NCBI GenBank assembly: GCA_027064425.1
Contig: JAMOPO010000027.1
Location: 160,001-224,000, forward strand
Origin: Methanobacteriota archaeon
GTDB taxonomy: Archaea; JAADCQ01; Methanopyri; Methanopyrales; Methanopyraceae
Length of the DNA: 64,000 bases
Direction of reading: 5' to 3'
Part shown: piece by piece, positions 1 through 59,255 of the stretch
Layout of the letters: every line of letters starts with the position of its first letter
Position numbering within the stretch: the stretch's first letter is position 1
Notes under the pieces: model-generated
Told to the model about the DNA's origin: nothing
What the model saw: only the letters and a program-made list of their open reading frames with translations
The model's database searches: none
Program-made: the position numbers and the translations under genes

Positions 1-1001
1 ACGAGGCGTTCGCGCTCAAGACGGAGACGGGCAAGATCGTGACCGCCCTGCAGGTGGCGCGGGAGGGCTCGATCCCGCGCGACGTGATCGTCAAGATGCG
101 GAAGGGGTACCGGCCGCCGGGCAACGTGATCCCGGACCTGATGGTCCAGCACCACGACGCGCTGGAGTTCCCGCGGATGAAGGGGTACCGGATAGTCCGG
201 ATCGCGACCCACCCGGACGTCATGCGGCACGGCCTGGGCTCGAAGGCGCTCGAGGAGCTGGCCAAGGTGTGCGAGGAGAAGGACTTCGACTGGATCGGCA
301 CGGGCTTCGGCGCGAACGAGGAGCTGACGAAGTTTTGGATCAAGAACGACTTCGTGCCCGTCCACATCAGCCCGAACCGGAACCCGGTGAGCGGCGAGTA
401 CTCCGTGGCCGTCATCCGGCCCATCTCGGACGAGGCGAAGGAGATCATCCAGCGGGCTAACTTCGAGTTCCGGCTCAAGCTGGTCGACTGGCTCGGTGAG
501 ACGCACCGCGATCTGGAGCCCGAGGTGGCCCGGCTCCTGCTGACCCCGATGTCGCCCAGCCGGTACCAGCCCAGCATGACGGACGGCCAACTTCGCCGAC
601 TCAAGAAGTACGTGGACATGGTGCACACGTACGAGATCGCCGCCGACGCCGTCCGGGAGCTCGTCAAGACGTACTTCCTGGACACCGAGGACCGGCTGGA
701 GCTGTCGAAGAAGGAGGAGCTCCTGCTGGTCACCAAGTGCCTGCAGCGCTGGGAGTGGGAAAAGGTCGCCGACTTCCTGGGCGAGGAGGTGCCCGACCTC
801 ATGCGGACGCTGCGCGACCTGGTCGGGCTGCTGTACGAGGAGTACGAGGAGGACATCAAGCGCCGCTCCGCGCTGGAGAGCGTTAACAAGGCCGTGGAGG
901 GGCTCGCGGAGAAGGGGCACTCCGGCGAGGTCATCGTGAGGGTGGACGAGGGCGAGCCGAAGGAGGTCGTGGTCAGACGGGAGGAGCGCTTCGAGCTCTA
1001 A
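1..1001 (+). CDS. tmcA: tRNA(Met) cytidine acetyltransferase TmcA/NAT10 (5'-truncated by window edge)
   Basis: GNAT motifs RIVRIATHPD...GLGSKAL, GTGFG, FWIKNDFVPVHISP..NPVSGEYS; frame is open from the window start. Confidence 0.88.
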   Translation, partial: EAFALKTETGKIVTALQVAREGSIPRDVIVKMRKGYRPPGNVIPDLMVQHHDALEFPRMKGYRIVRIATHPDVMRHGLGSKALEELAKVCEEKDFDWIGTGFGANEELTKFWIKNDFVPVHISPNRNPVSGEYSVAVIRPISDEAKEIIQRANFEFRLKLVDWLGETHRDLEPEVARLLLTPMSPSRYQPSMTDGQLRRLKKYVDMVHTYEIAADAVRELVKTYFLDTEDRLELSKKEELLLVTKCLQRWEWEKVADFLGEEVPDLMRTLRDLVGLLYEEYEEDIKRRSALESVNKAVEGLAEKGHSGEVIVRVDEGEPKEVVVRREERFEL

Positions 1002-57015: not shown

Positions 57016-57042
57016 AAATCGTTATGAAGATCGTAACGATCC
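57016..57042. repeat. 27-bp palindromic motif, copy 4
   Basis: AAATCGTTA-TGAAGATCG-TAACGATCC. Confidence 0.72.
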
Positions 57043-57058
57043 GCGGGGCTGGCGTGAG

Positions 57059-57113
57059 CCCCCATCCCCCGCCCCCTGGGCGTTTCGCCCTTCGGGGGCG
57101 GGTTCATCGGGGG
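57059..57113 (-). promoter_or_regulatory. SECIS element in the hdrA 3' UTR
   Basis: Minus strand CCCGCCCCC-GAA-GGGCG-AAA-CGCCC-A-GGGGGCGGG (archaeal GAA/A bulge) starting within 30 nt of the stop. Confidence 0.88.
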
Positions 57114-57129: not shown

Positions 57130-59142
57130 TTACTCCTCCTCTTCCTCCTCGCTGGTCGCCTCCTCGAGCAGTGCCTCGAGCTGCGGCATCAGCTGCTCGT
57201 CCCGGTAGTACCGCAGCTGCATGGCGCCGCTCGGACACGCCGCGGCGCACTGGCCGCAGCCCTCGCAGGCGACCTCCTCGACCTCGGCGACCTTCTTGCC
57301 GTCCTTCTCGACGATCTCGATGGCGTCGAACGGGCACACCTGCGCGCACGCGCCGCAGCCGCCGCAGACGTCCTCGTCGACGGTGGCCGTGATCAGCTCG
57401 ATCTCGACCTTGCCCTGCGACATCGGGATGCTGGCCTCGCTGGCCGCACCCTTCGCCTGGGCCACCGTGTCCGGGATGTCCTTCGGACCCTGCGCTACGC
57501 CGGCGATCTGCACGCCGCGGACCTTCGTGCTGACCGGCTCCAGCTTCGGGTGCAGCTCCTTGAAGAACCCGTCCGGCGACCGGTCGATGCCCAGCATGTC
57601 GGCGAGCTTGCTGTAGGTCTCCTCCGGTGCGACCAGCGCGCAGCCGAGGACGACCAGGTCCGCCTCGATCTCCAGCGGCTCGCCGGTGAGCGTGTCCTCG
57701 ACGCGCACGATGAGGTTCTTGGTCTCCGGGTCCTCGATGATCTCCGCCGGCCGGCCGCGGATGAACCGCACGCCGAACTGCTTCTGCGCGCGCTCGTAGT
57801 ACTCCTCGTAGCCCTTACCGAACGCTCGCACGTCCATGTAGCAGCAGTAGACCTCCGCCTCCGGGTTGTGCTGCTTGATCAGCTGCGCGTTCTTGAGGAT
57901 GAACATGCAGCAGATCCTGCTGCAGTACGCGTTACCCTTCTCCTCCTTGCCCGGGCACCGCGAGCCCACGCAGTGGATGAACACGATCCGCTCCGGCTCC
58001 TTGCCGTCGCTCGGCCGGATCACGTGGCCCTCCGTCGGACCCGCCGGGTTCAGCATCCGCTCGAGCTCCAGCGTGGTGATCACGTTGTCGTACTTGCCGT
58101 AGCCGTACTCCTCGAGCTGGCTCGGATCGAACTCCTCGTAGCCGGTGGCGACGATGATCGTGCCCACCTTGAGCCGGATCTCCTCCGGCTCCTGGTCGAA
58201 GTCGATCGCCGGCGGGTCCTGCGGGCACGCCTCCTCGCACAGCCGGCACTCGATGCAGTGCTCGCGGTCGATCGTGTAGACCAGCGGCATCGCCTGCGGG
58301 AACGGCACGTAGATCGCCTTCCTGGTGCCGATTCCGAGGTCGAACTCGTTGGGCACCTCGATCGGGCAGACCTCGGCGCAGACGCCGCAGCCCGTGCACG
58401 CCTCCTCGTCCACGTACCGCGGCTTCTTCTCGATGGTGACCTCGAAGTTGCCGATGTAACCGTCGATCTCCTTGACCTCGGCGTAGGTGATCAGCTCGAT
58501 GTTCGGGTGGTTACCGACCTGCACCATCTTCGGCGCTAGGATTCACATGGCGCAGTCGTCCGTCGGGAACGTCTTCGCCAGCCGCGCCATGTTGCCGCCG
58601 ATCGTCGGCTCCTTCTCGACCAGGTACACCTTGAAGCCCTGGTCCGCCAGGTCCAGCGCCGCCTGGATGCCCGCGATACCGCCACCGATGATGAGCACGC
58701 TGTCCTCGACCTCGACCTCCTTGGTGGGCACGTCCTCGAGCTTGCGCGCCCGCTCGACCGCCGCGCGGACCAGGGTCTTGGCCTTCTCCGTGGCCTTCTC
58801 CGGCTCGTCCAGGTGCACGAACGAGCAGTGCTCCCGGATGTTGACCATCTCCATGTAGTACGGTGACAGCCCTGCCTCCTTGACGCAGTTCCTGAACGTG
58901 TTCTCGTGGATCTTCGGCGTGCAGGCGACGACCACGACGCGGTCCAGGTCGTGCTCCTTGATCGCCTCCTGGATCTTCTCCTGCCCTGGATCCGAGCAGA
59001 AGAACGGGTAGTCCGTCGCGTACACGACGCCCGGCAGCTGCTTAGCGTACTCCACGACCTCCTCGACGTCTACCACTGCCTTGATGTTGACGCCTCAGTG
59101 GCACACGAACACTCCGACCCTGACGTCGTCACTCTCGCTCAC
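57130..59142 (-). CDS. hdrA: Heterodisulfide reductase subunit A, selenoprotein (UGA at codons 16 and 200)
   Basis: One frame from GTG 59142; in-frame TGA at 59095-59097 (VCH*GVNI) and 58543-58545 (DDCAM*ILAPKM), both at conserved Cys positions; GGGIAG FAD motif, ferredoxin motifs, CSRICC; SECIS downstream. Confidence 0.95.
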
Positions 59143-59255
59143 TCGTTCTCACCCCCTTCCCGTTGTGAGAGACCCTCCCACCTCCACGCCCGCTCCCCAG
59201 CCGCGGAAACTTAAGCAGGGGTCATTGAGGAAGTTGAGAGGGGGAGCGAAAGTCC

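Follow-up and report, generated by a model that had tools for sequence, protein, structure and literature searches.

Analysis of the window, by which we mean the whole 64,000-nt stretch of DNA (C27:160001-224000 of an assembly of 1.54 Mb, 57 contigs and 67.8% G+C), revealed, within the 3' UTR of hdrA in this Methanopyrus-type methanogen, a SECIS element in which a methanogen-type GAA/A hairpin stands on an AUGA/GA(U) core with a helix below it. This composition, proposed in the first-pass annotation, was supported by the sequence, the position and the folds. The best overall explanation, to which we give a probability of about 65%, is that the base of the hdrA SECIS is a selected kink-turn-like (K-turn-like) module that assists the GAA/A SECIS.

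The hdrA SECIS element and its gene

The element spans 55 nt on the minus strand (57113..57059), and its sequence, which had been recorded exactly, reads CCCCC-G-AUGA-A-CCCGCCCCC-GAA-GGGCG-AAA-CGCCC-A-GGGGGCGGG-G-GAU-GGGGG (Table 1). A direct count also confirmed the layout AUGA-N11-AA-N24-GA. The 5' end of the element is separated by 16 nt from the stop codon of a gene with a TGA at the canonical HdrA Sec site, and on the strength of this position and of the GAA/A architecture we regard the identification of 57113..57059 as the hdrA SECIS as close to certain.

Table 1. Parts of the hdrA SECIS element, its gene and the SECIS elements of the genome; positions are those of the window
Feature	Position	Strand	Basis or remark
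hdrA (heterodisulfide reductase subunit A), ~670 codons	57130..59142	-	Translation with TGA as Sec; stop TAA 57132-57130
Helix I 5' strand CCCCC, putative K-turn C-stem	57109..57113	-	Pairs with 57059-57063 in the 91-nt fold and the RNAalifold consensus
G-AUGA-A	57103..57108	-	Direct sequence; GAUGA invariant in 6/6 hdrA orthologues
Helix II 5' strand CCCGCCCCC	57094..57102	-	RNAfold and pattern scan
GAA of the GAA/A bulge	57091..57093	-	Its AA lies 11 nt past AUGA
Apical stem GGGCG/CGCCC, loop AAA	57078..57090	-	RNAfold
Lone A facing GAA	57077..57077	-	Direct sequence and pattern scan
Helix II 3' strand GGGGGCGGG	57068..57076	-	RNAfold and pattern scan
G-GA-U	57064..57067	-	Direct sequence; GAU invariant in 6/6 hdrA orthologues
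Helix I 3' strand GGGGG	57059..57063	-	91-nt fold, RNAalifold; bases alternatively in side hairpin 57062-57045
Alternative 3' side hairpin GGGGCU-CACGCC-AGCCCC, competitor of helix I	57045..57062	-	MFE of 83-nt stretch
HdrA SECIS			Core present
FruA SECIS			Core present
SelD SECIS			Core present
VhuD SECIS			Core present; VhuD has two Sec
VhuU SECIS			Core present
FwuB SECIS			Core absent
fdhA SECIS			Core absent; 5' UTR element, reads GAUGU...CGAA

Helix II (9 bp), the GAA/A bulge and the 5-bp apical stem were formed in every RNAfold prediction. Helix I (CCCCC/GGGGG) was formed in a 91-nt context and was displaced in an 83-nt context by the 3' hairpin GGGGCU/AGCCCC. The fold energy z-scores of -1.4 and -2.25 were unremarkable, as the region has a G+C content of ~76%. 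The asymmetric GAA/A bulge between two stems that marks methanogen SECIS elements is present, and it is flanked by GC clamps, CCC/GGG below and GGGCG/CGCCC above; such consecutive G-C/C-G pairs beside the bulge are described as a methanogen SECIS trait (PMC13188914, section 5; PMC11881835). The bulge has been named a 'kink-turn-like motif' by Peiter et al. 2025 (PMC11881835).

We also observed an A+T-rich hairpin, AUCGUUACGA-UCU-UCAUAACGAU (57018-57040, minus strand), between the SECIS and the next gene (ATG 56943). It is odd within 68% G+C DNA, is kept in 6/6 genomes of the genus and may be a promoter, terminator or regulatory element of the downstream dehydrogenase-like gene.

The hdrA gene probably starts at GTG 59142-59140, with the ribosome-binding site GGGGGUGA in front of it. 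Two in-frame TGA codons lie ~2.0 and ~1.45 kb upstream of the SECIS: one at residue 16 (59097-59095, motif VCH-U-G), which is an extra one, and one at residue 200 (58545-58543, motif DDCAM-U-ILAPK), which is the canonical Sec site. With the congener frames picked by motif anchoring, the residue-16 TGA was found in this genome only, and the four congeners compared all had TGC. A similar situation was observed in fwuB (L167, G000:C15), where residue 14 is TGA (motif CPF-U-G) and four congeners have TGT or TGC. Both extra TGAs fall in N-terminal Cys motifs of proteins that are already selenoproteins. They are either lineage-specific Cys-to-Sec conversions riding on the existing SECIS, or errors or nonsense mutations in a strain-mixture MAG. 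One contig of metagenome run X1, a possible source, matched 58834-59200 with 0 differences, and contigs of runs X2-X4 matched this region with 3-4 differences at unlisted places.

Conservation and spacing of the AUGA/GA frame

The whole genome was scanned with the GAA/A hairpin rule alone, AUGA being left unused, and the genes were identified by translation of the flanks. GAA/A hairpins were found at seven selenoprotein genes, and five of the seven carried G-AUGA(N0-1)...(N0-1)GA, with G-AUGA 0-1 nt before helix II and GA 0-1 nt after it (Table 1). As a control set, we used every hairpin of the genome in which 14-26 nt are closed by a 9-10 bp stem, 4145 in total; 87 had a 5' RTGA, 1115 had a 3' RA and 34 had both. 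Since five of these 34 are SECIS elements, the background frequency of the flank pair is 29/4140 (0.7%), compared with 5/5 among the SECIS elements with 9-10 bp helices.

Several side observations concern these loci. The fdhA GAA/A SECIS (L002, G000:C5 10394-10434) lies between a polyferredoxin gene and fdhA, ~95 nt upstream of the latter, and at least four members of the genus conserve this 5'-UTR element with its GAUGU...CGAA frame. The UGA within the AUGA core is the stop codon of both fruA (...LLRG-stop; L001, G000:C3 33768-33820) and selD (...DYPR-stop; L004, G000:C15 274864-274930), an arrangement that reportedly also occurs in some Loki genes. A tRNA gene with a long variable arm (L005 51-137, G000:C26) lies on the strand opposite to the vhuD SECIS, some 50 nt downstream of it, and scored 43 bits for tRNA; tRNA-Sec scored just 25 bits, on the other strand. 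Several SECIS elements (L001-L004, and the window at 57045-57062) are followed immediately by a small hairpin with (C)ACGC or CACG in its loop, possibly forming a third arm or signalling the 3' end.

Within the genus, this genome (G000) was compared with five congeners (G001-G005), the phylum-level search having reached only these six. The first-pass annotation had named loss of the AUGA/GA bases from orthologous hdrA UTRs as the outcome that would speak against it; the 3' UTRs of hdrA in 6/6 genomes keep (C)CCCC-G-AUGA...GAU-GGGG(G). Only the base after AUGA (57103) was different, as it is an A facing G in this genome and a C paired with that G in the other five, so that an A.G lies beside the tandem pairs here and a C-G in the congeners. 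The C was also found in the dominant strain of metagenome runs X1 and X2, and for the window-like contigs of runs X3 and X4 no difference is listed at 57103.

The comparison was then extended to the other families with a covariance model (R1) built from the five core-bearing elements; elements were collected from the six genomes, and two VhuD elements were added. In 29/29 elements (HdrA 6, SelD 6, VhuU 6, FruA 6, VhuD 5), RUGA was present at offset 0-1, as was GA/AA at offset 0-2, a result towards which the search leans, the G001-G005 elements having been found by an AUGA-containing model. No VhuD element was recovered from the 89%-complete genome G003. All 29 elements have 11 nt between RUGA and the AA of GAA. 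RUGA was missing from the FwuB elements (0/4) and from the fdhA 5'-UTR element (0/3 scored).

In an alignment of 32 elements, which was fitted to a covariance model and therefore favours the pairing figures of the helices, 99.6% of the helix II cells were paired, and all nine pairs change on both sides across families. Helix I was paired in 70.9% of cells; all five of its pairs change on both sides, the innermost being CG in 16 and GC in 9, and C-G to G-C swaps occur between families as well as between VhuU orthologues. When the partners were slid by one column, pairing fell from 91.8% to 58-66%. RNAalifold on the six hdrA orthologues alone also predicted helix I, without covariation, as nothing varies there.

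We consider it very probable that the AUGA/GA module is under selection. GAUGA...GAU is invariant in hdrA, the frame and its fixed spacing recur in all 29 elements while the helix II sequences differ and covary, and the background of such flanks is 0.7%.

A GAA/A hairpin framed by GUGA...GAG was also seen behind an unannotated ORF of a congener (L177, G004:C49 ~683-748, minus strand). This ORF has two in-frame TGAs one codon apart (...SSV-U-G-U-NG...), its stop is the UGA of GUGA, and it may encode a selenoprotein of that congener that has yet to be described; G000 showed no counterpart.

Outside the genus, a search of five arbitrary archaeal genomes with model R1 gave nothing, and a search of 151 relatives gave matches in just two genomes. 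Centred on one of these two, HdrA with one internal TGA was found in 36 of 40 genomes of the order, which is presumably Methanococcales; the window hdrA shows 69-75% identity to these 36 genes. A homology search with HdrA returned mostly Cys-type HdrA of Methanomicrobiales and none from Methanococcales, and a scan of seven of the returned loci with R1 gave a single match with E=0.5.

We examined 30 loci of this second order, in which vhuD follows hdrA. The vhuD SECIS has AUGA in 30/30, together with GA (16) or AA (14), and its spacing is 11 nt in 28, 10 nt in one and 12 nt in one; overall, 41 of 43 second-order elements have the 11-nt spacing. After hdrA, AUGA or GUGA...GAU is kept in 26 of the 30 loci. 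Fifteen loci have a strict GAA/A SECIS, which is framed by AUGA...GAU in 13 and not in L150 and L151, and seven have variants that the filter missed, with AUGA or GUGA...GAU flanks. Six loci (L144, L146, L148, L152, L153 and L156) have only a short hairpin without GAA/A, and nothing was visible in two (L162 and L165). RNAalifold on the full-length second-order hdrA elements revealed helix II and the apical stem, as well as a hairpin that covaries and directly follows GAU, at the place of the side hairpin of the window; helix I was not found in them.

The short hairpins read UAG-AUGA-[5-7 bp stem, 4-6 nt loop]-(C)UGAU or AGAU and fold as stem-loops. In particular, a 7-bp lower stem is predicted for the L156 hairpin along with a 6/3 asymmetric loop, as in a textbook K-turn. 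No hdrA SECIS of their own was found within 300 nt in these six genomes; their only GAA/A element is the vhuD SECIS, located 500-600 nt downstream, which presumably acts for hdrA as well. Judging by these sequences, the canonical SECIS apex was lost in the six genomes and the K-turn frame stayed, and this retention without GAA/A speaks most strongly for selection on the frame itself.

Relation to described SECIS elements and to flpD RNA

The hybrid feature of the hdrA SECIS has already been published, and the object is identical to the described [A/G]UGA_[G/A]A SECIS elements, which are likewise GAA_A SECIS elements with AUGA before, GA after and a short extra stem. Mariotti 2016 (PMC4989117) called VhuD SECIS elements hybrids of archaeal and Loki/eukaryotic features. 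Huang 2024 (PMC11227280) described [A/G]UGA_[G/A]A in every hdrA and frhD element from Methanococcales and Methanopyrus and AUGA_GA in all Methanopyrus frhA elements, a family that includes VhuU, and considered that the motif 'might become nonessential' in methanogens. For Methanopyrus selD, the same paper gives GUGA_[G/A]A, with which GUGA in G001 and G002 agrees, whereas the selD core of this genome, as well as those of G003, G004 and G005, is AUGA. The reading of the element as an intermediate SECIS in the first-pass annotation is not new, as this intermediate or archetype view is contained in both papers (PMC4989117, PMC11227280).

The value of the present analysis, the motif itself being published, lies in its confirmation and in modest additions, which are the fixed 11-nt spacing, the six genomes with a kink-turn hairpin but no GAA/A, the two Cys-to-Sec codon changes restricted to this genome and the identity with flpD RNA of Rfam. 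The 11-nt spacing and the apex-less K-turn hairpins are unmentioned in main-text parts of Mariotti 2016 and Huang 2024, and Table S6 and Fig. S12 of Huang 2024 may cover part of them.

The Rfam family RF01737, 'flpD RNA', originates from Weinberg 2010, where it is a candidate cis-regulatory RNA of Euryarchaeota to which the main text gives one table row. Its consensus, CAG-AUGA-helix-GAA-GGC...GCC-A-helix-CUGAUG, is the same hybrid, and its architecture (lower stem, AUGA, helix, GAA, GC stem-loop, A, helix and (C)UGAU) is present in the hdrA element, which differs in its longer apical stem and uninterrupted helix II. RF01737 matched the hdrA-vhuD spacer in 5 of 10 second-order loci with 44.8-68.3 bits. 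In this genome, the VhuU SECIS scored 42.0 bits (threshold 40) and VhuD 26.6 bits; the window hdrA element gave no match either at gathering (40 bits) or at E<=10. The family carries no SECIS label in Rfam, and a literature search with flpD and SECIS found no paper linking the flpD RNA motif to SECIS.

Eukaryotic SECIS elements have an unpaired AA(R) ~10-13 nt after AUGA. The type-II-like layout suggested for the hdrA element was borne out, with 11 nt from AUGA to AA and then a mini-stem. We found that it resembles the lokiSECIS (Asgard eSECIS-like) and eukaryotic type II elements in its AUGA...GA core, a U opposite U, a helix of ~10 pairs, an unpaired 5'-strand AA 11 nt past AUGA and a mini-stem; the AUGA...GA core of these elements is kept in 6/6 hdrA orthologues. 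Unlike them, it has the methanogen-defining GAA/A bulge and the GC clamps. The proposed scan with eukaryotic SECIS models gave no match to any Rfam SECIS family at E<=10 over the hdrA region and the six other SECIS loci. Weak matches of sR43, HgcF and others on the hdrA region (E 0.24-7.6, far below gathering) were rejected as chance. Additionally, the first-pass annotation had treated binding of Asgard eukaryote-like cores by L7Ae-family/SBP2 proteins as established, which was overstated, as the cited parts of two papers record no SBP2 in Asgard archaea (PMC4989117, PMC11227280), and SBP2 is described as not known in archaea (PMC4989117, PMC11227280, PMC11881835).

The kink-turn reading of the base and its alternatives

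The hdrA sequence fits a K-turn consisting of a C-stem, a 3-nt bulge, tandem G.A/A.G pairs and an NC-stem, with one extra U and with a predicted helix I that competes with the side hairpin. In G-AUGA-A, G-A-U would be the bulge, the following G-A would supply the 5' side of the tandem sheared pairs, and the final A would lie opposite G57067; in G-GA-U, GA would be the 3' half of the tandem G.A/A.G, and the extra U would lie opposite U57106, comparable with the eukaryotic U.U. As far as the sequence can tell, the likeness to box C/D and Kt-7 K-turns includes the C-stem, the G-A-U bulge, the tandem G.A/A.G and then a non-canonical pair and a Watson-Crick helix, and the second-order 3' strand reads CUGA as box D does. 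The differences are the extra U between GA and the C-stem and the absence of guide sequences and of boxes C'/D' in hdrA. Owing to this extra U on the non-bulged strand, the hdrA core is not a standard K-turn. The selD, vhuD and remaining VhuU elements share the U after GA (GAU), which matches the eukaryotic SECIS U.U, whereas FruA and three VhuU elements have the standard layout of C-stem, GAU bulge, GA...GA and C-stem with no extra base (GA-CCGG, GA-CGGCGG). The C-stem is the weakest part of the K-turn reading for hdrA, because the second-order RNAalifold consensus has a 3' hairpin and no helix I.

The SECIS would direct aSelB and Sec-tRNA to read the upstream hdrA UGA(s) as selenocysteine. 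Its upper two thirds, comprising the 9-10 bp GC helix, GAA/A and the GC mini-stem, form a canonical euryarchaeal SECIS and are probably the functional part, the one that others have found to be essential. We propose that its base is a separate selected module, in which G-AUGA and GA(U) can form tandem sheared G.A/A.G pairs beside a short lower helix. Such a module would be a kink-turn comparable with those of box C/D RNAs or eukaryotic SECIS elements, placed 10 pair positions below the GAA bulge. Most likely, a protein would bind the kink, which would hold the SECIS in a set geometry or bring a factor to it, helping the SECIS and not being strictly required.

L7Ae is a general archaeal K-turn binder, and it would be the most obvious candidate to bind the module. 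One gene of the L7Ae family (PF01248) was found in the genome, and archaeal L7Ae bound a eukaryotic SECIS (SelN) in vitro with a Kd of 35 nM, as described by Clery 2007 (PMC1874613). Binding of L7Ae to the hdrA SECIS core, for which this is the sole precedent, is plausible. That the base forms a K-turn, that an L7Ae-type protein occupies it and that the complex takes part in Sec decoding is a tentative proposal, which we consider rather unlikely. We judge it unlikely, on the sequences at hand, that the AUGA/GAU base is a true kink-turn recruiting L7Ae or another L7Ae-fold protein to selenoprotein mRNAs. If this were true, L7Ae would be part of the long-sought archaeal SECIS-binding activity, and the methanogen SECIS and the type II eukaryotic SECIS would be structural homologues, sharing the K-turn, the 10-pair helix, the AA bulge and the mini-stem. 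GAA/A would then be the counterpart of the eukaryotic AAR site and not of the eukaryotic K-turn, contrary to the name 'kink-turn-like motif'. How an archaeal SECIS in the 3' UTR communicates with the ribosome is unsolved, since no archaeal SECIS-binding protein is known (PMC11881835). A conserved and precisely spaced putative K-turn module under GAA/A turns this into a concrete, testable question, which bears on the origin of the eukaryotic SECIS.

Several findings speak against the explanation that a selected K-turn-like module assists the GAA/A SECIS. In M. maripaludis the base proved dispensable and a lokiarchaeal AUGA/GA SECIS inactive (PMC11881835), and Huang 2024 regarded the motif as possibly nonessential (PMC11227280). 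The FwuB and fdhA SECIS families of the same genomes have no core, helix I of hdrA shows no covariation and is rivalled by the 3' hairpin, which alone was found after second-order hdrA, and the extra U departs from a standard K-turn.

The K-turn might instead have a job other than Sec decoding, such as L7Ae-dependent control of the next gene, 3'-end formation or mRNA stability. The spacer between hdrA and vhuD, where the second-order element sits, forms the 5' UTR of vhuD, Rfam classes the element as the cis-regulatory 'flpD RNA', and the mini hairpins without GAA/A persist in that order; Peiter 2025 also kept the SECIS >60 nt from the ribosome-binding site so as to prevent an effect of this sort, citing L7Ae-mediated regulation (PMC11881835). 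In Methanopyrus, however, vhuD does not follow hdrA, and the motif stands behind five unlinked selenoprotein genes, whereas non-SECIS hairpins with both flanks are rare (~0.7% of 9-10 bp stems). With five unlinked genes and such rarity elsewhere, the motif is tied to selenoprotein mRNAs and to a fixed distance from GAA/A, and we consider a separate job quite unlikely.

Alternatively, AUGA/GA could be a functionless relic of an ancestral or Asgard-derived eukaryote-like SECIS, only GAA/A being of importance, as proposed by Huang 2024 (PMC11227280). In M. maripaludis, Peiter 2025 described GAA/A as the only indispensable part, a minimal, shortened fruA SECIS without the base as functional as long as GAA/A was intact, and a lokiarchaeal AUGA/GA SECIS as inactive (PMC11881835). 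It follows that the fruA element, at any rate, does not strictly need the base, and the FwuB and fdhA elements presumably work without the frame. A neutral remnant should decay, yet the unpaired bases are invariant over six genomes and five families while the adjoining helices change, the spacing is fixed at 11 nt in 29/29 elements of the genus and 41/43 of the second order, and the frame was retained in six genomes after the loss of GAA/A. We therefore regard a functionless relic as decidedly improbable.

The first-pass annotation had also suggested that the core lets one SECIS serve two distant UGAs of hdrA. The hdrA of this genome does have two TGAs, and VhuD, with two Sec, likewise has the core. 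The comparative data contradict this reading: four congeners with TGC at the first site keep an identical core, and 36/36 Sec-hdrA genes of the second order have one TGA and most keep the core. Furthermore, the single-Sec genes fruA, vhuU and selD have the core, and FwuB, with two UGAs here, does not. Since one-UGA hdrA genes keep the core and two-UGA FwuB does without it, an adaptation to multiple or distant UGAs is very hard to maintain. The idea that AUGA and GA are chance flanks of a GC-rich hairpin, with which the unexceptional fold energies would agree, has next to nothing left in its favour against 5/5 SECIS elements over a 0.7% background and flanks that are conserved across genomes and orders.
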